From a virus: a stretch of DNA of 64,000 nucleotides. The first letter of the stretch is position 1. Each line of letters starts with the position of its first letter. The stretch is taken from positions 1 through 64,000 of IMG/VR virus record IMGVR_UViG_3300009030_000001, one strand, 5' to 3'. Under the pieces are notes generated by a model, which saw only the letters and a program-made list of their open reading frames with translations, was not told where the DNA came from and did no database searches. Below, piece after piece: positions 4,073-48,362 of the stretch. Both the position numbers and the translations under genes were made by a program.

Positions 4073-7000
4073 ATGGGTCAGAACTTCGTCCAAGAGGATT
4101 CGACCACCACCACCTGCGGTGCGGTGCAAGCGTGCGCGGCTAACTCGTTAGCCTCAGTCAATCAGGAACACCGAGCAACGGTTGCCGCGACTCCCGGTTC
4201 TACTGGCGATACAGGTCTAGGTGCGATCGACTCTGGAGTGACTGCGGGTGTGGTCATGTACGAGTGCGCGCCCAACCAAACGGACTGGGCTGCCGGTACC
4301 GCTGTTGTTCGAGTCAACGTCGGTGTGGGCAACATGCAATTGGATATCGTTGCCATCTACTTGTGTCAGAGAAGTAGTGCGTGCGGCGCAAAGGCAACAT
4401 ATGGGAGCCTGACGTCGATCGGGCAGAACATAGGCACAGCACAGGTCTACAGCTTCAACGTCACATGCAGCGCGATCACGGCGCTGACTTCGGATCTGCT
4501 CTACATCGTAGTCGAGTTCGCTGGGCAAGCAGGGATGAGTCAAACCTGCGGGATTACGCCTAGCGAGACCATTGACACACCGATCTCCACCGGGGGCCAA
4601 GACGTCTCGGTTGGAGCCATCGCGGCGGGCACCACGATCAACGAGCCACAGGTAGCCCAGACCGTCCCGGTGCCAGCAATCTCAGCGGCAACCACGATGG
4701 TTGCCCCCACGATTGCCCAGGGCCAGACCGTTGCCGTTCCAGCGATGGCGGCAGGAACGGCAATCGTCGAGCCGTCGCAGATCAATCAAACCGTGCCAGT
4801 CCCGGCTATGGCGGCGGTTGCAGCAATCCCTGCCCCGGTCCTGGATCGGACCATCCCGGTACCCGCGATCCCGGCTGGAAGCGCGATCATCGCGCCGACC
4901 GTCGCCCGCGTGGTGGACATCCCGGTTATGGCGGCGGGGACGGCAATCCTCGCCCCACCGATCAACCAGACTGTTCCGGTGCCAGCGATGTCCGCGGCGA
5001 CGGCAATCATCCAGCCGGTACTGGACCGCACCATTCCCGTCGAGGCGATCACGGCGGGCACCGCAATACCCGCTCCGACGATCGATGCCGGTGCGGGCAA
5101 CCAGAATGTTGCTGTTGCTGCGATCTCCGCTGGGACAGCGATCGTTACTCCCCAGGTAGACCAGACGGTTCCGATTCCATCGGTCGCGGCAGGGACGGCA
5201 ATCCTCGCGCCACAGGTTGACCAGACTGTGGACGTCTCGGCGATGGCTGCCGGGACTGCGATCCCTGCACCGACCCAAGTCGATCAGACTGTCCCGGCCC
5301 CGGCGATCGGCGCGGGTACTGCGATCGTCGCACCGACACAGATCGACCAGACGGTAATCGTCCCGGCGATCTCTGCGGCCACTGCGATCATCGCGCCGAC
5401 CATTTCGGTTCCAGGGACATCCAGTAGCGTTCGTGTTCGCGGCAAGTGGTCGAAGGTCAAGCCGCCGAACCCGGTGTTGCATACGGGGCACGGGCTCGCG
5501 AAGGGACTGATCTTGTTCTGCCCGTTGATGGAACGAACCATTAGCGCGGACGCGAAGCATCGGGATCTATCACTGTTTGGTCGCGACGGCACTCCTAACG
5601 GGTTAGCTAGTGGCTTCTTCGCTAGTCCCTATGGAAACGCCATAGACTTCCCCACAATCGACCCCATCATAGATTTCGGAGACGAGGGCTTCATACCGAA
5701 AGAGAACATTACGTTCATGTGGGTGGGTAAGGCTGATGGGACGGTCACCAACCGTGCGATATTCGGTCATGACGTCACTGGTGGAGGGGGTAACGATCAA
5801 CGAATTGATTTCTCGCTCGGGGCTGATGCTACCGAGGCAAGGTTCAAGATCAGGAACTCAGAACTTATTGCTACTGGGATTGTGTGGACCGATTGGTCAG
5901 TGTGGATATGCACGATTGGCTCACGGGGGATGGAGATTTGGAAGAATGGCATCAAGGTTGCGAGTAACGGCACCACTACCACGGTGCGGGTTCCTGGTGG
6001 TGCGACCTTTACCCTTGGTGAGAATGGCGGCTTCCGAGCACAGGAAGCAGACCATGTAGCTATTGCGGTTTGGGATCACCAGTTGCCGCTGGAATTGATC
6101 CAGCAACTCACACTCGACCCGTGGGAGGTCATCCGCCCCTCCAAGATCATCGACGTCGGTGGCGCGGCGGCGGGTGGTGATCAGAATGTAAGCGTCGGTG
6201 CCATCGCGGCGGGCACAGCGATCGTTGCTCCCCAGGTTGACCAGACGGTTGACGTTCCCGCGGTCGGCGCAGGCACCGCGATCGTCGAGCCACAGATCGA
6301 CCAGACGGTGCCGATCCCCGCCATCGCAGCAGGCACGGCAATTCCGAGCCAACAGGTAGCCCAGACCGTCCCGGTGCCAGCAATCTCAGCGGCAACCACG
6401 ATGGTTGCCCCCGCGATTGCCCAAGGCCAGACCGTGGCGGTGGATGCGATAGCGGCCGGGACGGCGATGCTCGCTCCGGTCGTGGATCAGACCGTGAACG
6501 TCGGCGCGGTACCTGCGGCAACCGCAAGTCCTGCGCCCACAATCGCACAGGGTCAGACTGTCGCCGTTGCAGCCATGTCGGTAGGCACGGCGATCCTAGC
6601 GCCGACGCTCGACCGCACAATTCCTGTCCCTGCCATGGCCGCTGCCACCGCTGCACTGGCTCCACAGGTCGATCAGACGGTGAACGTCGGCGCGATGTCA
6701 GCCACGGCGGTGATTCCGGCGCCCACGGTCGCCCAGGGTCAGACCGTCGCAGTCGGGCCCATGGCTGCGGGGACTGCGGTAGTTGCGCCGCAGATTGACC
6801 AGACCGTGCCCGTTGGGACGATACCGGCCGCGACAGCCTCCCCCGCGCCCGCTGTGGCCGCCGGTCAGGACGTAGCGGTTCCGGCAATGGCCGCAGGCGC
6901 AGCTGCACCAGCGCCCGCACAGGTAGCCCAGACCGTCCCGGTGCCAGCGATCCCGGCGGCGACCGCCATCCCGGCCCCCGTTCTCGACCGGACTATCCCG

Positions 7001-8383
7001 GTGCCAGCCATTGCCGCCGCCGCGGCATCCCCAGCGCCCGCCCAGGTCAGCCAGACCGTGGACGTCCCTGTGATGGCCGCAGTGACCGCAAGTCCCGCGC
7101 CTACAGTTATTACCGGCAAGACCATCGCGGTCGAGGCCATCGCCGCTGGCACCGCGATCCTGGCACCGGTGCTCGACCGGACCATCCCCGTCCCGGCGAT
7201 AGCTGCTGGCACGTCGAGTCCAGCGCCGACAGTCGGTCGGATTGTTGAGGTTCCGTCGATCGCCGCTGGCACCGCGTCGCCCGCGCCGGATCAGGTCCAG
7301 CAGACCGTACCAGTGCCTCCGATGGCCGCTGCGACCGTGTCTCCAGCCCCGTCGATCGTGGCGGATCAAAACGTGGCGGTGGCCGCAATAGCTGCGCGGG
7401 CGGTTGTCATCGCGCCCTCTGTCACGTTCGGACAGGTCATCAATGTGCCGGCGATGCCTGCCGCCACGGCGTTCCCGGCGCCCGTCGTGGAAGTCCTGGG
7501 GCCATTCGGCGACTGCTGGACCAAGGTAGCGTCGAAGTTCAACACCGACATCACGATCGGGGCGTCGGTCGAAACCCAGTTCGACAACATGGAGTTCCAG
7601 CCCAGCGGGTCGTTCGATCCGACCACGGACGAATGGGTGCGGTTCCAGATCCGGTTCACGAAGTGCGAGTTCATGCAGTCTGGCGGTCCCAAGGGTTCCC
7701 AGCAGGAGTACCGAATCTGGGGCGAGGCGATCTGCTCGATTCGAAGCCCGGTGGTCCTGGGTGAGGCTGACGGCCGCGTGATCGCTGATCTGTTCGTGAC
7801 CAAGTTCCGGCGCGTGGTCCAGGATGGCGTCTACTACCGGAATCCTGGGAGGCGAAACGATGCCCGCCGGGAGGGTGCGTGGTGGATTCAGGACTACATC
7901 TGCCTGTTCTACTGCGACTTCGACGAGGACCGCAACGCGCACACGCCAGCGACAGTGTCGCCGAAGCGTGAGGACGTCCCCAACATCTTGATCTCCAGAT
8001 ACATAGCGAAGGTCGCCACGCCGCTTTCGCTACCGACCCTGTACGACAACCAGTTGACCGGGATTCCGAACGAACCTTACGTCCTGCTTCTCGTCAACGA
8101 CGGTTCGTCGCTACAGTTGGACTCCCGGCCTGGACACAGAACCATCGGCATCATGACCGCCGAGGTGAACGTCCCGGTCGAAACTGGAACATTCCGACAA
8201 CTCCAGATCGCTGACGCGATTGCTACCGCTTTTCGGGCCGTATCCGAGAAGGGAGTTACCTGCACTGTTCCCTTCGTGCGGACTGTGAACACTGTGCCCG
8301 GTGCCGGTGTTGCCCCGTCTGCGAGGGACGGATCATGGTGGATGGCGAAGGTCGTCATCCCATTCTATTTCTCTGAACAATAG
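4073..8383 (+). CDS. Giant fibre-like protein: Pro/Ala repeats + LamG-like lectin domain + two tandem tail-terminator-like (DUF4128-type) domains
   Basis: Dozens of ~21-23 aa repeats (QTVPVPAIAAGTAIVAPQVD); central LamG-like region; C-terminal duplicated DN..P...(W/Y)V...G...I..P...G...IAD...F...WW...F motifs. Lies directly before the tail tube gene. Confidence 0.7.
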   Translation: MGQNFVQEDSTTTTCGAVQACAANSLASVNQEHRATVAATPGSTGDTGLGAIDSGVTAGVVMYECAPNQTDWAAGTAVVRVNVGVGNMQLDIVAIYLCQRSSACGAKATYGSLTSIGQNIGTAQVYSFNVTCSAITALTSDLLYIVVEFAGQAGMSQTCGITPSETIDTPISTGGQDVSVGAIAAGTTINEPQVAQTVPVPAISAATTMVAPTIAQGQTVAVPAMAAGTAIVEPSQINQTVPVPAMAAVAAIPAPVLDRTIPVPAIPAGSAIIAPTVARVVDIPVMAAGTAILAPPINQTVPVPAMSAATAIIQPVLDRTIPVEAITAGTAIPAPTIDAGAGNQNVAVAAISAGTAIVTPQVDQTVPIPSVAAGTAILAPQVDQTVDVSAMAAGTAIPAPTQVDQTVPAPAIGAGTAIVAPTQIDQTVIVPAISAATAIIAPTISVPGTSSSVRVRGKWSKVKPPNPVLHTGHGLAKGLILFCPLMERTISADAKHRDLSLFGRDGTPNGLASGFFASPYGNAIDFPTIDPIIDFGDEGFIPKENITFMWVGKADGTVTNRAIFGHDVTGGGGNDQRIDFSLGADATEARFKIRNSELIATGIVWTDWSVWICTIGSRGMEIWKNGIKVASNGTTTTVRVPGGATFTLGENGGFRAQEADHVAIAVWDHQLPLELIQQLTLDPWEVIRPSKIIDVGGAAAGGDQNVSVGAIAAGTAIVAPQVDQTVDVPAVGAGTAIVEPQIDQTVPIPAIAAGTAIPSQQVAQTVPVPAISAATTMVAPAIAQGQTVAVDAIAAGTAMLAPVVDQTVNVGAVPAATASPAPTIAQGQTVAVAAMSVGTAILAPTLDRTIPVPAMAAATAALAPQVDQTVNVGAMSATAVIPAPTVAQGQTVAVGPMAAGTAVVAPQIDQTVPVGTIPAATASPAPAVAAGQDVAVPAMAAGAAAPAPAQVAQTVPVPAIPAATAIPAPVLDRTIPVPAIAAAAASPAPAQVSQTVDVPVMAAVTASPAPTVITGKTIAVEAIAAGTAILAPVLDRTIPVPAIAAGTSSPAPTVGRIVEVPSIAAGTASPAPDQVQQTVPVPPMAAATVSPAPSIVADQNVAVAAIAARAVVIAPSVTFGQVINVPAMPAATAFPAPVVEVLGPFGDCWTKVASKFNTDITIGASVETQFDNMEFQPSGSFDPTTDEWVRFQIRFTKCEFMQSGGPKGSQQEYRIWGEAICSIRSPVVLGEADGRVIADLFVTKFRRVVQDGVYYRNPGRRNDARREGAWWIQDYICLFYCDFDEDRNAHTPATVSPKREDVPNILISRYIAKVATPLSLPTLYDNQLTGIPNEPYVLLLVNDGSSLQLDSRPGHRTIGIMTAEVNVPVETGTFRQLQIADAIATAFRAVSEKGVTCTVPFVRTVNTVPGAGVAPSARDGSWWMAKVVIPFYFSEQ

Positions 8384-14808: not shown

Positions 14809-15960
14809 GTGCTGCTACCACTGCTAGAAAATCTGCGGGCGCCTCCGCTTATTGCGGATCCGGACTTTAGTGTCCCCGAAACATCCGGTGCACCGTTAGC
14901 GTTGCTGGGTGGTCATCACGACGTACTGATGCCGAGAAAGTTCGTCGATACGCTGCAAACCTACGGTCCAGGCCATCGGACAACCCGATTCACCGCTGCG
15001 GCAGGAGCGGATCGATTCCAACAGCATTGGTCACAGGCGCAGCGTCAGTACGTCTCTTCGATCAGCAATCTTCCGACGGCTGACATCGATGAGTTGGTCG
15101 ATTTCGTACTTGCCAGGAAAGGGGGCGCGTTCTCGTTCAACATCGAGGATCCGAACGACTTCACGACCGCGTCGAACCACATCGCAGCGCACACAGCTTT
15201 CGACGTGACGGAGGGCCCGACCAAGGAAACTGGCACGTTCGTGACGCCGATCTACAAGCGGTATGCGGACGACACCAGATTCGAGGTAACCCGAAGGCTG
15301 CACTACGTCGAGGAGATCCTTGTCGCTGTCGATGGATCTCCGGTGACCGCAGGCATTAATTACTTCCTGACGAAGTCGCCGGCGACCATCAACTGGATCC
15401 TGGCACCAGGGCAGGGCAGCGTGGTTACCTGGGGAGCACTGTTCTACACCCGAGTCCGGTTCAACGCGGATCTTGACCAATGGTTGAGGGCTATCCGAGA
15501 TGTCGAAAGCGGAAGCACCGAACTTCCCCTGATCGAGGAGAAGGTGGCCGGCCAGATTCTGACGCTGGACGATGTCGATAGGCTACGACCGAACGCGCTT
15601 GAAGACGGCGCGCATGGCGTCACCGGACCGCTGACCAACGTCGAGTTCAGCCAGGGCTTCATCCACTTCTTCAATCCGGCTGGGTTCACTCACGTCCGGA
15701 TGCCGCCAATCCTGCTGAACGGGGAGATCGTCGGTTTCGACTGGCGTACTCCCAAGGGTGGACCGCACTTCTGGATCTTCAATCAGTCCGCGGCCAACAA
15801 GCTCCTGCTATTCGAGTACTTCCCCACGGGAACCAGTGGTGGAACCATTTGGCAGCCGATTCAGGCCGGAGGTCCAAGCACGGTGGAAAATAACATCATC
15901 GGACCAGGACAAGCCCGCAAGCTGTGGGTGACGTTCGACTCGCGATGGAGGGCGTTCTAA
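14809..15960 (+). CDS. Distal tail protein, DUF2460-like (copy 2)
   Basis: Paralogous motifs GPGHRT...W..A.R.Y...FVLARKG..FSF..EDP.DF...K.Y...VRF..D. Confidence 0.7.
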   Translation: MLLPLLENLRAPPLIADPDFSVPETSGAPLALLGGHHDVLMPRKFVDTLQTYGPGHRTTRFTAAAGADRFQQHWSQAQRQYVSSISNLPTADIDELVDFVLARKGGAFSFNIEDPNDFTTASNHIAAHTAFDVTEGPTKETGTFVTPIYKRYADDTRFEVTRRLHYVEEILVAVDGSPVTAGINYFLTKSPATINWILAPGQGSVVTWGALFYTRVRFNADLDQWLRAIRDVESGSTELPLIEEKVAGQILTLDDVDRLRPNALEDGAHGVTGPLTNVEFSQGFIHFFNPAGFTHVRMPPILLNGEIVGFDWRTPKGGPHFWIFNQSAANKLLLFEYFPTGTSGGTIWQPIQAGGPSTVENNIIGPGQARKLWVTFDSRWRAF

Positions 15961-38872: not shown

Positions 38873-39342
38873 TGAACGACGAACAACTGGCAGCCTTGCA
38901 GGCTATCTATGACCGCGATGGGAACCTCAAGGCCAGCACTGTGCTGGCCGAGGCGACTCCGCCGGATGCTCCGTGCCACTCGCTGTTTGAGTGGGATGTG
39001 GAGAAGGCGGCACGGGAATTCAACCTCGACATTGCGCGGCAAATATGCCGGACCGTCGTCATCAGTCATGATGGTTTGGCGGAACGGTTGGTCAACGTCC
39101 CATCAATCCGGCGGGAGGGTGAGGAAAGTCAAGAGGGCTACTACCAGTTCCCGGGTGTGATGGTGCAGGACGAACACGATCGAGCGATGGGTCAGGCGTT
39201 GTCGGCGCTGCACGCGGCCCATGAGAATGTCGATGTGCTTGCCAAGGGTCCGAAGGGTTCACCTAACCTGAGGAAGGCGTTGAAAGGCATCAAGAGGGCT
39301 CAGGATCTCCTAGAATCTGAGCGTCAAGGCCCGGCGTCGTGA
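38869..39342 (+). CDS. Accessory protein of the RAMP-like locus
   Basis: L..IY..DG.L....V...A......H..FEWD...AA......AR...R; coupled to the RAMP gene, and its stop abuts the array. Confidence 0.7.
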   Translation: MMNDEQLAALQAIYDRDGNLKASTVLAEATPPDAPCHSLFEWDVEKAAREFNLDIARQICRTVVISHDGLAERLVNVPSIRREGEESQEGYYQFPGVMVQDEHDRAMGQALSALHAAHENVDVLAKGPKGSPNLRKALKGIKRAQDLLESERQGPAS

Positions 39343-39660
39343 GGCTGGGCAAGGCAGGTACTGCGAGGCACGGCAGGCAATGCGCGGCGTGGCACGGCGA
39401 GGCGGGGCAGGGCGTGGCTCGGTCCGGCACGGCACGGCAGGCGGGGCGCGGCGGGGCCTGGCCCGGCATGGCGAGGCGCGGCACGGCACGGCAGGCGAGG
39501 CGGGGCAGGGCGTGGCTCGGTCCGGCACGGCACGGCAGGCGTAGCGCGGTGTGGATAGGCAAGGCATGGCGAGGGCGGGCATGGCAAGGCAATGCAGGCA
39601 TGGCACGGTGTGGCTTGGCAGGGCGCGGTACGGCACGGCTTGGCAAAGCAGGCATGGCAT
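39343..39660 (+). ncRNA. GGY-NN pentamer array punctuated by 4-nt NGCA units (VIPR-like guide RNA array)
   Basis: ~58 pentamers of GGY + variable dinucleotide, split by seven GGCA/TGCA/AGCA units into blocks of 2, 3, 12, 10, 8, 11 and 10, plus 2 terminal pentamers. Confidence 0.75.
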
Positions 39661-39835
39661 AGTTTCCCACGACAAATGAACCAAGGTGCAGGCAGCCCAG
39701 AACAAATACCGCCGGTCAGGAGCCGGCTTGGCCTATCTGGTTTGCGTCTTCGTTCGAGGCAAACACCAACCCAATAACGGTGCTGCCTGCACCGACTTCT
39801 ACGATGATGGATTCGACGAAACCTCAAGATTCCAG

Positions 39836-39864
39836 TTGAACAAACCAACCTGACCCCCATACTG
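39836..39864 (+). promoter_or_regulatory. Promoter family copy C (upstream of ATPase-TIGR unit)
   Basis: TTGAAC aaaccaacctgacccc CATACTG. Confidence 0.65.
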
Positions 39865-39913
39865 CACACAGGCTGATCGAGTTGGTCAGCTAGAACACGA
39901 AAAAGGAACGGCC

Positions 39914-41251
39914 ATGACTGAAGAGACCTTCTCCGACCTGACACTGATCGGGCTTCGCGTCCGTGATTTCATGCGTGTCAGTCTTGTCGAACTCAAACCG
40001 GACGAGTCTGGAACGATCGAACTACGCGGTGCGAATGCTGCTGGCAAGACGAGCGTGATTTGGGCGATCTGGGCGGCCTTGGGCGGTGGCCGCGTGTCGC
40101 CGGATCGACCCATCAAGGAAGGCGCGGAAGAAGCGTCGGTCATGCTCGACTTTGGTGACATCCTAGTCAAGCGGACCTGGGACGAGACCGGCACCAAGCT
40201 CGAAGTGCGACGGTCCAGCGATGGCACCACGATCAAGTCGCCGCAGAAGCTGTTGGACTCGCTCGTGTCCCAGTTCGTCGACCCGTGCCAGTTCCTCATG
40301 CTTCGACCCGAGGATCAGGCCGCGCAGGTTCTCGCCATGACAGGGTTAGCCGAACCACTGAGAGAACTGGACGACAAGGAAGAACGGGCGACGGAGGTTC
40401 GACGGGATCTTGGTCGAGATATGAAGCGGGCGCAAGGCGCCCACAGAACCGCGGCGGATGATCTTCCCGCACTCGACAAGGACGCGCCATCCATCTCGGA
40501 TGCGGCGGTAGCACTGAAGACGGAGACCGATTACTTTTTGCTACACACGTCGGAGAAGGAGAGTTTGGACTATGCCGTGCGCGACATCGATCGTGTGAAG
40601 GGATATATCACGACGCTGACCGAAGAGATCGCAGCGCGGACCACGCAGATTGGCGAACGCCAAGAGCAGTTGACGCGAACCCAAGGGGCGATTGTCGCGC
40701 ACACGAAATACCTCGCCGACAATCGCCAACCGGATCTTGACGGTGCGCAGAAGGCTTTGGACCTTGCAGAGACCCAGGCTGGAGCAGTCGCGGCACACAA
40801 GAACGAGAGGGATCTCAACACGGCGTTCTGCGCCGCGAAGAAACTGCACGACGGCGCCGAACATCGGGTGAAGGAGATTCGGTCGAAGCGCGCAACGATT
40901 CTGGAGGGCGCGGAGTTCCCGGTGGCCGCAATGAGCTACGACGCGGACGCGAAGACCCTGATGCTCGGAACGGTATCGTTCACGCAGGCGTCCAGCGCGG
41001 AACAGTTGAAAGCATCGATTGAGTTAGCCATTGCGGGCAGCCCTGGGATCAAGCTCCTGTTCGTGCGCGACGCTTCGCTGCTAGATTCGGATTCGCTCAC
41101 CGTCATTCGAACCATGGCCGCAGAGCGAGGGTACCAAGTCATCCTTGAGATCGTAGACGAAGACCCGGAAGGCCCAGGCGTGTTCATCGAGGATGGATGC
41201 GTACGAGAACAGAGTGAACCAAACAAACCGACACCCAAGGCATATGAGTGA
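39914..41251 (+). CDS. SMC/Rad50-like ABC-type ATPase
   Basis: Walker A GANAAGKTS, long coiled coil, signature ASSAEQ, Walker B-like LLFVRDASLLD. Confidence 0.85.
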   Translation: MTEETFSDLTLIGLRVRDFMRVSLVELKPDESGTIELRGANAAGKTSVIWAIWAALGGGRVSPDRPIKEGAEEASVMLDFGDILVKRTWDETGTKLEVRRSSDGTTIKSPQKLLDSLVSQFVDPCQFLMLRPEDQAAQVLAMTGLAEPLRELDDKEERATEVRRDLGRDMKRAQGAHRTAADDLPALDKDAPSISDAAVALKTETDYFLLHTSEKESLDYAVRDIDRVKGYITTLTEEIAARTTQIGERQEQLTRTQGAIVAHTKYLADNRQPDLDGAQKALDLAETQAGAVAAHKNERDLNTAFCAAKKLHDGAEHRVKEIRSKRATILEGAEFPVAAMSYDADAKTLMLGTVSFTQASSAEQLKASIELAIAGSPGIKLLFVRDASLLDSDSLTVIRTMAAERGYQVILEIVDEDPEGPGVFIEDGCVREQSEPNKPTPKAYE

Positions 41252-42031
41252 GCCAGACAGTCCGATACACATGCTCTCAGAGCGAACCAAGCCCCGCGAT
41301 ACCCACCGAGAATGAGTGAGCCAATCGTTGCGATACTCAGTCACTCCGAACGAGCCATCCACGTCGACACCCATACCACATGAGCGAACCAACTCCCCCG
41401 AAACCCAGAGACGATGAATGAGCCAGACTCTGCGATACCCACAGACGTCGATCGAACCAGAGACCCAGACACCCAGGCAAGAAGAGTGAGCCATCACGCC
41501 CGATACACACCCGTTGAGAGCGAACCACAGCCCTCGATACCCACGCACAGCGAGTGAACCACGTGAACGAACACCCAAGTGCAACGATTGATCCACACAA
41601 CCGGCGATCGAGCCAAGGATACTGATGTCCAAATCGTTCGAGCGAGTCAAAGAAACAGATACCCACACCATATGAGCGAACCAGCCGACCGGATGCCTAA
41701 AACCACAGAGTGAACCATCCAACATGATACCCACCCCCACGGAGTGAGTCAGGATCGTTGAAACACAAGGACTCGAAACGAACCACATGCCACGATGCCC
41801 AATTCGACAGAGTGAGCCACACCGAGTGACGCCCACTAGGCACGAACGAACCACGATGACCGATGCACAGAAAACAAGAGTGAACCAGGGCCACCGATAC
41901 CCAGATGCGATGAGTGAACCATGAGGGCCGATATCCAAGTCGGGTGAGTGAGCCAATAGCTGAGATACCCAGACGTCGTGAGCGAACCAGTACGAGCGAT
42001 ACCCAAACAGAACAAGTGAACCAAACAGGAT
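41212..42031 (+). ncRNA. TIGR-like dual-repeat array, upstream (23 full 34-nt units + 1 truncated + terminal partial)
   Basis: Unit = GANYGARCCA (10) + 8-nt spacer + GATACCCA-like (8) + 8-nt spacer. Starts at 41212, 41246, ... 41552; a 20-nt unit at 41586; then 41606 ... 42014. Confidence 0.9.
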
Positions 42032-42038
42032 AACAACC

Positions 42039-43151
42039 ATGACCGATACGAGTGTGCAGACCGCGTTAGACCTGACCCCCGCTGTTCAGCGGATAACGAA
42101 GGATCTACGCGAAGCCGTGAAGACCTTGAACGTGCAAGAGGCCCGGTACCTGGTCGACTACTACTACCAGATGCAGGAGGATCGGAAGCGGTCGGCGAAT
42201 CAGGAGCGGGCGGTGAAGGACGGCGCTGATACGGAAGGCCCGTCCGGTGCGGTGGCTTGGCTCGCTGCGCAGGGAAGGTGCATGGAAAGCCGGGTCAGGA
42301 CGTTCCTGGACATCTACTCCGGCCACCACCCTCTTGGGATCTGGGCCCGATCGAACGTGGGAATTGGCCCTGTTATCGCAGCCGGATTGCTCGCGCACAT
42401 CGACATGGCGCAGGCGCCGACCGCAGGACACATCTGGTCGTTCGCAGGATTGGATCCACGGGTGAAGTGGACCGGTGCAACCGAGACGGCGAAGGAACTG
42501 GAAGCGTGCCTCGGCGGGCGGCCCGACAAGGTGTCCTACGAGCATCTCGTCATGGCGTGCGAACACTTCCGGCGCAAGCCAGCCACGATTGAACGCTACG
42601 CCAAGCCGCTCAACTGGACGACGTTGGTGAAGGCGCTGAACCGGCGGCCGTGGAACACGCCGCTCAAAACTCTGTGCTGGAAGATCGGGGAGAGCTTCTG
42701 CAAGGTCTCGGGTAATCCAGACGCCTTCTACGGCAAGCTGTACGCCGAGTACAGGGTCGAAGAAGACCGGCGGAATATCGCTGGCGAGTACATACAGCAG
42801 GCGTATGACAAACTCGAACGCTTCAAGATCGGCAAGGACACCGACGCGCACTTGTGGTATGCGGGATGCCTTACTTCTGTCAACGCGAAAGACATTCGAA
42901 AGGCGGAGTCGAGCAAGCGTATGGGAATGGCGAAGAAACTGGCAGGCGATCCCGGAAGCGGACAGCCGATGTTGCCACCGGCCCACTTGTTCGCTCGCGC
43001 CAAGCGCCGTGTTGTCAAATTATTCCTCAGCCACTATCACCACGTCGGCTACATGCTCTCGCACGACGGCGAAGAACCCCCGCGCCCCTGGGCCCTTTGC
43101 CAAGGGGGGCATACCCATTTCATCCCGCCGCCCAACCTAGACAAACTGTAG
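42039..43151 (+). CDS. TasA-like Nop-domain RNA-guided protein (IS110 C-terminal/Nop fold, no nuclease domain)
   Basis: Coiled coil LVDYYYQMQEDR; GIGPVIAAGLL...IWSFAGLDP; WN..LK..CW..GESF; Y...Y; H...RAKR..VKLFL.H. No N-terminal DEDD RuvC and no HNH. Flanked by arrays. Confidence 0.85.
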   Translation: MTDTSVQTALDLTPAVQRITKDLREAVKTLNVQEARYLVDYYYQMQEDRKRSANQERAVKDGADTEGPSGAVAWLAAQGRCMESRVRTFLDIYSGHHPLGIWARSNVGIGPVIAAGLLAHIDMAQAPTAGHIWSFAGLDPRVKWTGATETAKELEACLGGRPDKVSYEHLVMACEHFRRKPATIERYAKPLNWTTLVKALNRRPWNTPLKTLCWKIGESFCKVSGNPDAFYGKLYAEYRVEEDRRNIAGEYIQQAYDKLERFKIGKDTDAHLWYAGCLTSVNAKDIRKAESSKRMGMAKKLAGDPGSGQPMLPPAHLFARAKRRVVKLFLSHYHHVGYMLSHDGEEPPRPWALCQGGHTHFIPPPNLDKL

Positions 43152-43528
43152 TCAGAACCCACGACACCCAGGACATCAGAACGAGTCAGTTCGAATGACA
43201 CACACACGATGAGAACGAGCCATGAAGTAGAATGCACAAAGTTGAGGATCGAGCCAAGATGAGCGATACCCAAACCCTCTGAGTGAGCCAACCCCTCCGA
43301 TACTCATCATCTAGGAGCTAGCCACCGTAGGCGATACCCATAACGCAAGATCGAGCCATGACAGGTAACACCCACAACATTAGATCGAACCACCACTGGT
43401 GATACACACTACCTCAGAGTGAGCCATAGGAGTTGATACCCAACATGATCGAACGAGCCACTTCTTGAGATGCCCAGAGCCTGAGATCGAGCCAGTCGCC
43501 AAGAGACCCATGAGAATCGAGCGAACCA
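43150..43528 (+). ncRNA. TIGR-like dual-repeat array, downstream (11 units + terminal repeat)
   Basis: Same 34-nt unit: edge repeats at 43179, 43213, ... 43519; the first, degenerate edge overlaps the Tas stop codon. Confidence 0.9.
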
Positions 43529-43605
43529 CATAACCACATTTGGCACCGGGCAGGAGTTGACTCTCCTTCTTCCCCTTTTCCCGAACCCTGTCCGGTGCGT
43601 TTACC

Positions 43606-43929
43606 ATGACCAACCGCCCAGACCCATCGAGCACCCACATCCGAATCCACATCCTGTCCATGCTGTCGCCGACTGAACCGAAAGCTGGCGAAGACATCAG
43701 GGCCGAAGTTGCATGGGTGCCTTCCGTCGCGGCCTTCCTGAACATGCTTTCTGGCATGGATGATTGTGACTACGTCGCAACCCACAGAACGCCACGGTCC
43801 AGGGATGGACACGGCACAACCGTAAACGAATACACCATCACAGCGCGCGGTCGCCAAGTTCTAGAGGAGGCTGTCGCCTTCTACGCGGACTTGTCGAAAC
43901 CAAACGCAAAGGAGACTGAGACGAGATGA
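43606..43929 (+). CDS. Winged-helix (PadR-like) protein
   Basis: HILSML...YV...R......EYTITARGRQVL. Confidence 0.6.
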   Translation: MTNRPDPSSTHIRIHILSMLSPTEPKAGEDIRAEVAWVPSVAAFLNMLSGMDDCDYVATHRTPRSRDGHGTTVNEYTITARGRQVLEEAVAFYADLSKPNAKETETR

Positions 43930-46753
43930 CAGCGACCGAAGATATGAAGACGGAAGAACCGAAGACCGAGAAGCTTGCGAAGATCGATGCGGTGACGTTC
44001 CGAATCGAACTCACGCCAGGGATGGATCCGTGCGACGCTGCGGCGAGCGACGACAACCGCAAGGTGCGACCACACCGTTTGCTCATCACTGCGAGGAATG
44101 GCAAGTGGGAGATCCAAGGTCTAGGTGTTCCAACTACCCGCAAGGGCTTGGACTACAAGGCCGGAGACTCCAGGTTGATTCGGTTCTGCGAGGTAACGGC
44201 GCAACGGCTGGCCGACTCGTGGATAGAAGAGATCCTGTCGCAAACGGAGATGAGATCGTTCGACCTTCCGCCAGCCCCGGTTCCTCTGCTCACGCCCAGC
44301 GAGAGCGACAAGATAGGCGTCCTGGGATCCATGTTCGGCGACGACGTCAGCGCATGGCCAGCGGAAGTTCGTGAGAAGGCGAAGGCCGATGGTCTGCTCC
44401 GCTTCGAGCAGGAAACGTCCGCGCCGAGCCCGGACTGATGCTGTTCTTCGACCAACTACTCGTGGAGGACTGGTTCCCGCTGTTCAACATGCGCGACGGC
44501 AAGGAAACCAAGGAACGCGAGATGCCGATGGTGAAGGATGCGGTCGTGTTCGAGATCACGAACTGCGCCGACTACCGGACCGAGCATCCGTGCACGGAGC
44601 CAATCCTGGGGCGCCGCATCGCGGTTCCTGATGACATCGAAGTGGCATGGTTCGAGTTCAAGGAGAAGCTGGCGGTTCCAGACGATGCGGTAGGCGCCGT
44701 TGAGCACGCCATGACGTCGGGCACCTACACCTCGTTCGGTCACGTCGTCAAGTTCATCGACCTAGAAGGCGAAGAGGCTCGGAACGACGAGTTTGTCAAC
44801 CCGTCGCCAGGGTCGAAGTGGTGGATCATCTTCACCGACTTCATGCGCAAGAAGGTGGGTGGCATGGCACGGATCCTCGGCCCGATCTTCAACTGTCAAC
44901 TCGTGGTCGGCCATCACGGCGATGTGCAGCACGTCGACTTGGGTCCGTACTTCAACCGGGCCCGTTGGAACATGCCTCATCCTGACATCTCGCCGAAGCA
45001 GAAGACCGGCGCGAGCAGGATCTGCGAACCGGCGTTGTTTGCGATGCAGATGCTGGATGAATCGGGGTGCGAAGTGTTTGACCCAACACAGACAGGCCCG
45101 TCTCGCACTTACCGGCGCCAACACGGCCGCGACCTGTGCGTATACAACAAGGTGAGTGTACCAACATGACCAGCGGTAGCCAATGACTGACGAAGACCTA
45201 CAAGTATCCATGGAGGAACATGCCAGGCGCGTGATCCGTCTCGCCCAGGTGTGGAAGTTCCCGATGGACGCCAAGTTCCACATCGGATCGACGGACCTAC
45301 TCGGCGCAGGCAATTACCTGGAGCGTCTGGTCAAGTCGACTGTCCAGCAGACGGCAGGACTGGTCAGGCAGGCACATGCAGCGAAGACGGAGACGGTTGA
45401 GACGATCGCGAAGGAACTGGCGGACAGCGCCTACGAAACCACGACATACGATCACTTCCAGGAGATGATTGTCGATCGGGACATCTTGGCTCGATTGGAT
45501 ACTGCATTGGCTGCGCCCATCCCGTTAGAATCCAAGCCAGAGGGGCCGGACAGTTCGCCGGCCGATGAACCATGAGACCAACCAGACGAGAGTTCTTGGC
45601 GCTGTTCGGCGGCGCGGTAGCGTCCGTGACGGTCCTTCGTAGGATCACCGACGGCAAGGTTGCCGCGCCGAAGAAGGCTATCCCCGACCCCAATGGAATC
45701 GGGCTACACCACCAAGACGGCACCGAAGTCAACGGTGGGGGCTATTCCCGCGTGTCGCTGCCAAGGGATTGGAAGACCGCGAAGGCCATCACGTTCCCCG
45801 TTGCGGAATCGGACTGGGGCGAGGTCTCGTTCATGTCGATCCCGCACGGCTCCGGCCGCGTCCTGATTCCGATGCTCGGCAGCAACATGGTCGCATGCAC
45901 GAACCAGATCCGCATCGATGGCATCAACCTGCGCCCCGTACCATGGGAGAACGGGCAGGAGCGTGTGCTGTGTGGGAGGCGGGTATGAGCGACGAGCGCG
46001 AAGCGACCGAACTACCACCCGGCAAGTTCCGGATCTACCTAGCTATGGAGTCGTGGGATTACGAAGGCACGACTGTGCACGCGATTTTTGCGACTGCACA
46101 GGAAGCGGCGGAACGATGCTACAAGGCTTGGTGCGATGGCGTGTACGGTGATCTGACGCCGCACTTGGCACCGTCGCCGCACCCGATCGGTGACGACCCG
46201 GCGAGGTACGAGATCAAGCACAGAAGTTGTTCGATCTACGTGAAGACATGGACCGTTGAGCGGGAGTCGTGAACCGATGACCGACGAGCACGAAGCACCG
46301 GAATTTTCAGGCGTCACGTCCGCCACTTACCGCGGATGCGGCTGCAAGGAGATCGAGTTCACGGATGGCCACAAGGTATTCGAACCGTGTCTCGCCTGCG
46401 CTCTATACCAAGCCGGTCATGCCCTCCAACAAGCATCGCTGCGGATCCGAGAGCAGCGGGAACGTGACGCTCTATGACGATCCATGGCCGATAAGTCCCC
46501 GTACCGAACCCGATGCGACTACTGCGGCGAGCACGTTGGCTACGACAAGCCGTGGGTGTTGCTGAACCGCTACGGTGTCGGAACTGGCTCGAAACGATGC
46601 CTCTCCGAGATCGTCACCGATGGTGAGTACCTGTGGGAAGTAGACGAAGACACCGGCGACGTCGAAGCTGGCGGCGCCCTACTCTGCTGGCCCCAGTGCC
46701 TCCATTCATGGATCGAGGGGAAGATGATCCAAGTCGACGCCGAAGCGCCCTGA
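43926..46753 (+). other. Accessory genes (43926-44438, 44438-45169, 45183-45575, 45572-45988, 45985-46272, 46277-46477, 46484-46753)
   Basis: Coupled ORFs. 45572 has a twin-arginine leader and resembles the gene at 1265. Confidence 0.6.
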
Positions 46754-47126: not shown

Positions 47127-48362
47127 ATGTCGTCTGACAACACGCACATCGTCGAACAGCTACGGTCGCTGGCGCGGCCCGTGGACGAGTTCACGCTCGA
47201 TCCCACCAACGCCAGGATCCACGACGAAGACAACCTGGAAGTGATCAGGACTTCGTTGAAGAAGTACGGCCAGCGGCAGCCGATCGTCGTCCAGAAGGAC
47301 GGCATGATCGTTCGGGCCGGGAACGCGCGCCTGATCGTCGCCAGGAAGCTGGGGTGGAAGACCATCGCCGCGGTGGTGATCGACGAGCCTGACCTTGCCG
47401 CAACTGCTTACGGCATAATCGATAATCGTAGCAGCGAAATGGCCGAGTGGAGTGACGAGACCCTAGCGAAGCTGCTGGCGTCGATTCAGTCCGAGAATCC
47501 GGAGATGCTAGAAGCCACCGGATTCGACGAATCGGAGTTGGAAGAATTGCTAGCCGAGATCGCAGGCGAACCGGACGTGATCCAAGATGACGTCCCGGAA
47601 CCGCCAGCGGAACCGGTCGCAAAGCTCGGGCAGTTGTGGGCGTTGGGTGATCATCGTCTCTTATGTGGTGACTCGACGAAGACGGATGACGTGGAGCGTC
47701 TGATGGACGGCGAGAAGGCTCGGATGGTATTCACCGACCCGCCGTACGCGCTATTCGGCAACTCGACTGGGGTTGCTGGGATAGTGGACGACAAGATGAC
47801 GCGTCCGTTCTTCTTGGAGGTATTCAGGCAGAGCCGAGCCTTCACCAAGTTGTTCGCCCATATCTACGTCTGCTGTGATTGGCACTCGGCGTTTTCGTTG
47901 CAAGCAATGGCCCGAGAAGCCGGGCTGACGGAAAAGAACCTTTGCATCTGGGACAAGGGGGACGGTGGCATTGGCGCTATGTATCAGCAGTGTTACGAAA
48001 TGGTTTGGTTTTTCGCTAATTCCCCCATAGCCGCCGGGGCGACCGCCAAGAAAGCCGTAGGGGAACGAACAATCAACGGCAAGCCGAACATCTGGCGATT
48101 TCCCCGCGAGTTGGCGGACAGATCGCACAATGCGCAGAAACCGGTGGAGATGGTTGCTGGTGCGGTGAGTAACAGCAGCGACCCAAAGGATATAGTACTG
48201 GATTTGTTCTTAGGCGGTGGAACCACTCTGATTGCCGCCGAACAACTTGATCGCACTTGTTACGCAATGGATCTAGAGCCAAAGTATTGCGACGTCACCA
48301 TTGCCAGATGGGAGAAGCTGACCGGCCAGAAGGCAGAACTCTTGGAGGAATCCCATGCCTAA
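47127..48362 (+). CDS. ParB-like domain + DNA N6-adenine/N4-cytosine methyltransferase
   Basis: NARIH...SL..YG...PIVV...AGN.R; HRLLCGDST; TDPPY; H..QKPV; DLFLGGGTT. Confidence 0.9.
   Translation: MSSDNTHIVEQLRSLARPVDEFTLDPTNARIHDEDNLEVIRTSLKKYGQRQPIVVQKDGMIVRAGNARLIVARKLGWKTIAAVVIDEPDLAATAYGIIDNRSSEMAEWSDETLAKLLASIQSENPEMLEATGFDESELEELLAEIAGEPDVIQDDVPEPPAEPVAKLGQLWALGDHRLLCGDSTKTDDVERLMDGEKARMVFTDPPYALFGNSTGVAGIVDDKMTRPFFLEVFRQSRAFTKLFAHIYVCCDWHSAFSLQAMAREAGLTEKNLCIWDKGDGGIGAMYQQCYEMVWFFANSPIAAGATAKKAVGERTINGKPNIWRFPRELADRSHNAQKPVEMVAGAVSNSSDPKDIVLDLFLGGGTTLIAAEQLDRTCYAMDLEPKYCDVTIARWEKLTGQKAELLEESHA

Follow-up and report, generated by a model that had tools for sequence, protein, structure and literature searches.

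A probable dual-repeat TIGR-TasA system with 34-nucleotide guide units in a tailed phage genome

The locus at positions 41212-43528 (+ strand) of the viral DNA IMGVR_UViG_3300009030_000001 from IMG/VR consists of a gene for a 370-aa protein with an array of tandem interspaced guide RNAs (TIGR) on either side of it. We consider it very probable that the locus is a tailed-phage TIGR-TasA system of the dual-repeat type, which binds its target without cutting it. All positions refer to the window, which is the whole stretch of 64,000 nucleotides that was analyzed. The window forms part of a single sequence of 73,154 bp with a terminal overlap of 123 bp and a G+C content of 59%. This sequence encodes a tape measure protein, tail proteins, the small and large terminase subunits, RecE/RecT, RusA, and a replication protein, and is a complete tailed-phage genome. 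TIGR-Tas systems have been described by Faure et al. (Science 2025, PMC12045711). The features observed in this study are the anatomy of the array, the family membership and fold of the protein, its lack of a nuclease domain, a base pair that closes each guide, and a fast turnover of the guides.

The array contains 34 guides of 34 nt, 23 located 5' and 11 located 3' of the gene, as well as one 20-nt remnant and one degenerate unit (Table 1). Each unit is composed of an edge repeat GAGYGARCCA (10 nt), spacer A (8 nt), a loop repeat GATACCCA (8 nt), and spacer B (8 nt). The original prediction for this DNA had placed 23 and 11 units within the same borders, and laying out the sequence in rows of 34 nt gave the same count and place. 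It had also called the 34-nt period strict, which is correct throughout the units but not at the 20-nt remnant, the sole phase shift of the array. When 35 units (the 34 guides and the degenerate unit at 42014) were stacked, columns 1-10 and 19-26 had an information content of 0.6-2.1 bits, compared with 0.0-0.3 bits for columns 11-18 and 27-34, which supports the division into 10 + 8 + 8 + 8 nt. No spacer A, spacer B, or A/B pair occurs twice among the 35 units, in line with the original observation that spacer pairs are not repeated. Both repeats start with GA, the A being invariant in the loop and present in 34 of the 35 edges, and both end with an invariant CA, which is extended to CCA in most cases. 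Their resemblance to box C/D motifs, noticed from the outset, agrees with where Faure et al. place box D and box C, at the start and the end of the repeats (PMC12045711, 'Structure of a TasR RNP').

The skeleton GANNGANNCA-N8-GANNNNCA was found 28 times in the window, compared with 0.21 times expected by shuffling, and none of 100 shuffles reached 28. All 28 matches are on the + strand and 27 of them are inside the array; on the − strand, the pattern was not found anywhere in the 73-kb genome. Tandem Repeats Finder did not report the array in 40000-45000 because the variable spacers hold it below the score threshold. The first unit of the array overlaps the final 12 codons of the upstream ORF, whose match to phrog_1499 ends at residue 433 of 445, meaning that the homologous part of this ATPase gene (start at 39914) stops where the array begins. 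The degenerate first edge of the downstream array overlaps the TAG stop codon of tasA (43149-43151).

Table 1. Window positions of the parts of the TIGR-TasA locus and of the hairpin that follows it
Feature	Positions	Strand	Description	Basis or remark
Upstream block 1	41212..41585	+	11 units x 34 nt	rows of 34 nt, column information, motif pattern
Truncated unit	41586..41605	+	20 nt: GATTGATCCA + CACAACCG + GC (edge + spacer A + GC)	
Upstream block 2	41606..42013	+	12 units x 34 nt	
Terminal edge and degenerate unit	42014..42047	+	terminal edge AAGTGAACCA, which closes the last upstream guide, then degenerate unit with AGGA ribosome-binding site and tasA ATG	
tasA	42039..43151	+	370 aa, predicted nuclease-less TIGR-associated protein	
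Downstream array	43145..43518	+	11 units x 34 nt	first edge 5'-degenerate
Terminal edge repeat	43519..43528	+	GAGCGAACCA, closes the final guide	
Hairpin	43543..43601	+	12-bp GC-rich stem GCACCGGGCAGG ... CCTGTCCGGTGC, long loop, then GTTTACC	

In all 34 consecutive pairs of edge repeats, column 7 (A/G) of the first was found to pair with column 4 (T/C) of the second (19 G-C, 14 A-T, and 1 G-T), a score reached by none of 100,000 permutations, and inside the same edge repeat the two columns pair in only 24 of 34 cases. A 34-nt stretch that begins in the middle of one edge and ends in the middle of the next is therefore closed by a base pair between its two ends. The additional edge-repeat base pair seen by Faure et al. 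in the TasR structure (PMC12045711, section 8) is the same pair. The units that break the rule are the remnant at 41586-41605, whose column 7 (T) does not pair with column 4 (C) of the following edge, and the unit that contains the start codon, and neither is expected to be a guide. The latter, the degenerate unit at 42014, is no guide because the closing pair is absent. Relatives whose arrays are polymorphic at columns 7 and 4 also obey the rule: 21 of 21 pairs at locus L005, 18 of 18 at L024, 24 of 24 at L028, 15 of 15 at L050, and 67 of 70 at L066. The 'AA' class in the pair table of the relatives consists of 10-nt loop repeats that match the same search pattern. At the level of sequence, the rule shows every guide to be under apparent selection to close its two ends by a base pair.

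A sister phage from IMG/VR (G001; 41,247 bp, estimated to be 56% complete) has most genes in common with the studied phage, at approximately 80-90% nucleotide identity. Its TasA is 90% identical and is found in the same place; the repeats and the borders of the arrays are the same as well, and the closing-pair rule holds in 33 of 34 cases. The sister arrays contain 10 units upstream and 25 downstream, compared with 23 and 11 in the studied phage. Only 6 of the 34 guides are common to both phages, in conserved order and with 1-3 differences in the 16 spacer positions; the remaining guide pairs have at least 6 differences, as do unrelated spacers. The guide sets thus turn over almost completely (28 of 34 differ) while TasA stays 90% identical. 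The shared units are scattered, with other units gained or lost between them, and from these two arrays we infer that guide turnover is interstitial and not limited to one end.

It could also be proposed that the repeat region is a protein-coding repeat instead of an RNA array, a reading that has in its favor a 319-aa ORF on the − strand (41081-42040), where one frame is open over the entire upstream array (275 codons). However, the period of 34 is no multiple of 3, hence each unit would lie in a different frame, and all three + frames hold 10-13 stops each. The + strand of the array contains 11.7% T, which makes stops rare on the − strand, where the other two frames have 5 and 3. The G+C content at third codon positions (GC3) of the − strand ORFs is 0.52-0.57, compared with 0.77 for tasA and about 0.7 for the neighboring genes, and the downstream array has no comparable long ORF. 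Moreover, 28 of the 34 units have been replaced wholesale in the sister phage, and the pairing of column 7 with column 4 is a signal of RNA structure on the + strand. A translated array, which the original prediction had named as a finding that would speak against it, is thus not upheld, and we give this explanation almost no credence.

The protein encoded between the two arrays contains a coiled-coil hairpin (approximately residues 32-96) followed by a Nop-type C-terminal domain. Its residues 35-336 match the NCBIfam model NF052498.1 (TIGR_Tas_endo) with 153.4 bits (cut-off 100), phrog_4285 matches at 5e-36, and the Protein Data Bank (PDB) sequences of TaTasR (9mty, E 5e-9) and SpTasH (21kl, E 1e-4) were also matched. 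Pfam gave no match to HNH or RuvC up to E = 10, and a match to FTZ (12.2 bits) was below the threshold of 25. An AlphaFold (AF2) model, built with 103 sequences (the query and 102 of the 120 listed best homologues), has a predicted local distance difference test score of 93.6 and a predicted template modeling score of 0.90 and is composed entirely of helices, with no strand. The top 10 structures retrieved by Foldseek with this model are TasH or TasR chains throughout, each with a probability of 1.00. The comparison of structures that the original prediction had proposed as a check gave the same result: in VIA-align, the model matched TasH with a Z score of 18.1 (223 residues aligned, model 30-370 with chain 66-309) and TasR with a Z score of 16.6 (194 residues, model 32-368 with chain 111-322), followed by the IS110-family ISCro4 with a Z score of 11.8, below which there were only generic helical hairpins. 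The HNH and RuvC parts of TasH and TasR have no counterpart here because the alignments begin at residue 66 of the TasH chain and residue 111 of the TasR chain, and the coiled coil of the protein is preceded by only some 30 residues. As judged from this model, the protein is TasA and has no nuclease domain. Archaeal Nop5 is absent among the listed rows of Foldseek and VIA-align, which are filled by Tas proteins, IS110, and helical hairpins, so that the Nop fold is supported via the Tas structures and not directly. The original identification as a TIGR-Tas locus with a nuclease-less Nop-domain TasA and a dual-spacer array is therefore sustained by the family model and by both structure searches.

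The only Pfam domain found in the protein is the C-terminal domain of IS110-type transposases (Transposase_20, residues 107-149, E 9e-7), PHROGs labels the family 'transposase', and one array unit is truncated. These observations would fit a remnant of an IS110-type transposase with repeats resembling bridge RNA, or a decayed and non-functional TIGR locus. However, the NCBIfam model for IS110, NF033542, reached only 28.8 bits (cut-off 140) and covered residues 108-150, whereas the Tas model passed its threshold, and the protein has no DEDD/RuvC domain, the model being all-alpha and beginning at the coiled coil. Decay is in conflict with an ORF that is intact, has a GC3 of 0.77, and is 90% identical in the sister phage, and with the closing pair and box motifs kept in all 34 guides, which argue for ongoing selection. 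We therefore regard a transposase remnant or a decayed locus as very improbable and the dual-repeat TIGR-TasA system as the better interpretation.

A protein search found 5,537 relatives at E ≤ 0.001 among 8,000 candidates scored. A relative is encoded in 92 of 93 candidate stretches from IMG/VR and in 55 of 256 candidate stretches from genomes, the latter from many phyla, with none above 44% identity and no close prophage. An autocorrelation scan detected an array adjoining the gene in 81 of 134 loci, with a period of 36 in 69, 35 in 6, 34 in 5, and 30 in 1; the scan is crude, so that weak arrays were missed, and several loci are near-duplicates. The locus with a period of 30 has a different repeat, which leaves 80 of the 134 loci with arrays of 34-36 nt. 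The 36-nt units of the relatives are composed of 10 + 8 + 10 + 8 nt, for example GAGCGAGCCA-N8-GAGAGAACCA-N8. Spacers of 8 + 8 nt, which the original prediction had taken as a variant, are thus the norm in the relatives, and they have also been published for SpTasH, with 16 nt given for SpTIGR (PMC12045711, section 6). What actually sets the array studied here apart is that its loop repeat has only 8 nt, not 10, which gives a unit of 34 nt.

Two other features that had been considered unusual turned out to be shared. The 34 guides form a long array, yet relatives have runs that come to roughly 40 edge pairs or more, the loop-loop pairs (at L040 and L066, for example) set aside. The two helical insertions in the Nop region (approximately residues 141-203 and 270-312) are absent from both TaTasR and SpTasH and are novel relative to these two only: among the 103 aligned sequences, 37 have the first, 81 the second, and 15 both. 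A FastTree phylogeny of 71 Tas proteins is compatible with a single origin of the 34-nt arrays as well as with several: it needs 3 changes, of which well-supported branches force only 1, and 54 of 500 shuffles gave an equal result. The upstream array of the sister phage includes a unit of 35 nt (locus L001, 2703-2737), whose spacer A has 9 nt and which moves the array phase by one; unit length is therefore not absolutely fixed even inside one array.

Transcription, processing, dimer binding, dual-strand pairing, and repression are considered here on the basis of the published Tas proteins FpTasA, TaTasR, SpTasH, and MbTasA. By analogy with these, the + strand of both arrays would be transcribed together with tasA, probably by read-through from the upstream early/middle genes, because the preceding ORF runs right up to the array and the search for a promoter found none. 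This transcript would be cut in the middle of each edge repeat, which would yield 34 different tigRNAs of 34 nt, 5'-(A/G)CCA - spacer A - GATACCCA - spacer B - GAN(U/C)-3'. A TasA dimer, formed via the coiled coil, would bind each of them, one Nop domain gripping the joined halves of the edge and the other the loop repeat, in both cases through GA (box D) and CCA (box C). It has been reported that FpTasA binds processed RNAs of unit length (PMC12045711, section 5). At a DNA site of 16 bp, the two 8-nt spacers would then each pair with a different strand, and the complex would stay there and block transcription (or replication) without cutting, since TasA has no nuclease. Binding and repression rather than cutting had been anticipated for this locus and are by now published for one TasA: MbTasA binds to its target DNA and is a reversible repressor of transcription (bioRxiv 10.64898/2026.09.09.750476, section 12; 2026). 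The target is likely to be a competing mobile element or the host.

Several points weigh against this interpretation. MbTasA is a different TasA, and repression by the protein studied here is suggested by analogy only. No sigma-70-like promoter was found on the + strand of 39500-44500. A scan for consensus terminators did not call the hairpin that follows the array, and terminator-like sites are no commoner than in shuffled sequences. The hairpin, possibly a weak terminator of the array transcript, has a folding z score of −2.45 (2 of 200 shuffles fold equally well), and its sequence is retained in the sister phage. No public RNA run with the locus was found, the sole run containing it being a DNA metagenome. 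In addition, no target was found for the 34 guides in the genome of the phage itself or in the sister phage, in either geometry.

Another objection concerns guide processing. The residues W351 and H358 of TasA align with the processing dyad Y289/H296 of SpTasH, as numbered in PMC13421893. The column of the catalytic histidine is invariant in all 103 aligned sequences, and that of the tyrosine contains Y in 81, W in 17, and F in 5. With W351 in place of the tyrosine, the alignment suggests that autonomous processing as in SpTasH is not assured. TaTasR also aligns a W at this position and has been reported to depend on a further factor, being required for maturation without catalyzing it (bioRxiv 10.64898/2026.08.11.744272); by analogy, we infer that host-assisted processing of the guides is a live possibility here. 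The 34-nt unit likewise deviates from the geometry that Xu et al. linked to the dyad, the dual-repeat guide being 'uniform' and 'fixed' at 36 nt in section 13 of their preprint (bioRxiv 10.64898/2026.09.09.750476, 2026). The arrays of 34 and 35 nt are exceptions to this statement. Faure et al. give ranges for the repeats, of 8-12 nt (PMC12045711), and 36 nt is therefore a typical and not a defining value. Considerations of a link between unit length and processing should take account of dual-repeat units of 34 and 35 nt, and array-finding tools should allow for such units beside the 36-nt norm.

The 34-nt unit and the tryptophan might also define a subtype of dual-repeat systems that departs from the 'fixed 36-nt, Y/H-dyad' geometry and has its own guide maturation. 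The compensatory closing pair, in which A-U and G-C occur side by side in one array, and the whole units gained or lost at interstitial sites, with order kept, between the two sister phages would in that case mean that TIGR arrays evolve by the exchange or insertion of tigRNA-sized modules bordered at the processing site. We put this forward tentatively and consider it rather unlikely. If it were true, it would be the first concrete clue to guide acquisition in TIGR arrays, which is called unknown in the literature.

To look for targets, 16-bp sites were sought in both geometries, the reverse complement of spacer A followed by spacer B, rc(A)+B, and the opposite order, B+rc(A). As a control, spacer A of one unit was combined with spacer B of another. 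The published descriptions of TIGR-Tas leave the pairing geometry unstated in the passages covered (PMC12045711; bioRxiv 10.64898/2026.09.09.750476). No guide matched the genome of the phage itself better than the mispaired control, the best match being 14 of 16, and matches of 13 of 16 were if anything depleted (12 and 15, compared with 23.5 and 25.4 expected). The guides searched against the sister phage, the sister guides against the studied phage, and the sister against itself gave no targets beyond the control either. The search for spacer matches that accompanied the original prediction as a proposed check thus yielded nothing above the control in these two genomes. Large sequence collections are unsuited to such a scan, a point also made in the literature, since chance alone would bring up a 16-mer there many times.

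One match of the guide at 41844 (spacer A CGATGACC, spacer B GAAAACAA) was seen in a tail-region gene of the sister phage, where 15 of 16 positions agree in the geometry B+rc(A) (L138, at about 39812-39827 of the contig G001). The homologous site of the studied phage, in a glycoside-hydrolase-like gene (phrog_2913, 15886-15901), agrees in only 13 of 16. This is the pattern expected if a competitor were targeted and the phage itself spared, and can serve as a lead only, about 0.06 such matches being expected per test with six tests run. A mispaired control that joins spacer A from the unit at 43179 to spacer B from that at 41518 had a perfect match of 16 of 16 in the phage genome at 19359, with about 0.04 expected, and lone perfect 16-mer matches are therefore no evidence of targeting.

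It has been suggested that TIGR systems regulate the life cycle of their carriers or assist integrases, which are listed as open possibilities in the sections concerned of the two reports (PMC12045711, section 10; bioRxiv 10.64898/2026.09.09.750476, section 13). A working TIGR-TasA that regulates the life cycle of the phage, by self-targeting repression, DNA bending, or help with integration, and does not act on competitors or the host, would be consistent with the position of the locus among early/middle replication and recombination genes. However, the guide matches of both phages to their own genomes do not exceed the mispaired controls, and a scan of 42 ORFs brought up no integrase. Fixed self-regulatory sites also agree poorly with two phages that have most genes in common and yet differ in 28 of their 34 guides. 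We thus consider a role in the life cycle of the phage itself improbable, and competitors or the host the likelier targets of the TIGR-TasA system.

With regard to the genomic setting, the early/middle genes around the locus are on the + strand, and the locus lies directly 3' of the ATPase gene (phrog_1499/AAA_23). The deposited phages nearest in terminase and tail protein are distant (terminase at most 43% identical), and no host is assignable. Neither the locus nor the protein matched the INPHARED phage collection in megablast and tblastn searches, and Rfam gave no match on the locus at E up to 1. Between the ORF that ends at 39342 and the ATPase gene, an intergenic G+C-rich run (39348-39615) contains about 50 imperfect pentamers (GGCAN) with higher-order periods of 49 and 98 nt. 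The 49-nt periodicity is also seen in the sister locus (L001), and the run may be an iteron-like or regulatory region. At 4073-8383 (+ strand), only the last ~135 residues of a 1,436-aa ORF match a PHROG (tail terminator, phrog_179), and the first 1,300 have no assignment. The ORF may result from fusion or faulty joining, or may encode a large structural protein. A gene 4 kb 3' of the TIGR locus (47127-48362, + strand) encodes a ParB N-terminal domain fused to an N6/N4 DNA methyltransferase, and fusions of this type are common in phages. It is not adjacent to tasA; occasional operons of TasA with ParB are mentioned by Faure et al. (PMC12045711).

The locus is one more phage TIGR-TasA in a family of thousands, with more than 20,000 catalogued loci, and leaves the known picture unchanged. 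Its use is as a clean example from nature: the phage genome is complete, and a sister phage, sequenced in part, can be compared with it. The TasA peptide and the sister phage had no match in the searched part of Table S1 of Faure et al., which is not evidence of an uncatalogued locus.

Among the known systems, the dual-repeat TIGR-TasA systems, such as that of FpTasA from Flavonifractor plautii (PMC12045711), are similar to the system of this phage in that they are phage-borne and have a solo protein of coiled coil and Nop domain with no nuclease. They also have the same organization: edge/loop arrays with two short spacers lie on both sides of the gene on the same strand, the repeats open with box D and close with CCA (box C), an extra edge pair covaries, the 5' edge of the first unit is degenerate, and the last edge is followed by a hairpin. 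They differ in the unit, which is 36 nt there and 34 nt here owing to the 8-nt loop. Box D is GA here and UG in TasR arrays, and the processing position is W here and Y in the published dyad. The spacers are 8 + 8 nt, as in SpTIGR, compared with 9 + 9 nt in FpTIGR, and the number of guides is higher than the 'most often 5 to 15' given for published arrays (PMC12045711).

SpTasH from the Salicola phage CGphi29 (PDB 21kl, 9w03, and 9w04) and TaTasR (9mty) share the coiled-coil/Nop fold, and SpTasH additionally has the equivalent of the histidine retained here (H296) and spacers of 8 + 8 nt. However, both contain an N-terminal nuclease, HNH or RuvC, and cut DNA, whereas the TasA studied here begins at the coiled coil. 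They also lack its two helical insertions, which many TasA relatives have. MbTasA and the TasR repressors with a dead RuvC (bioRxiv 10.64898/2026.09.09.750476) are similarly free of nuclease or nuclease-dead, and reversible RNA-guided repression has been demonstrated for them and would be expected here by analogy. In the parts covered, the preprint of Xu et al. centers on Tas proteins that bind stem-loops, whereas the array described here is of the dual-repeat type.

More distant counterparts are the IS110 bridge-RNA recombinases and the box C/D small nucleolar ribonucleoproteins (snoRNPs; Nop5, Nop56/58). No genes for fibrillarin or L7Ae-like proteins were seen among the 42 ORFs scanned. The recombinases and the snoRNPs have a Nop-type RNA-binding domain, two guide segments, and box C/D-like motifs in common with the system of this phage. 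They differ in that TasA has no DEDD recombinase domain and is accompanied by a long guide array in place of single RNAs. The target of the box C/D snoRNPs is RNA, whereas that of the system described here would, as in other TIGR-Tas systems, be DNA.

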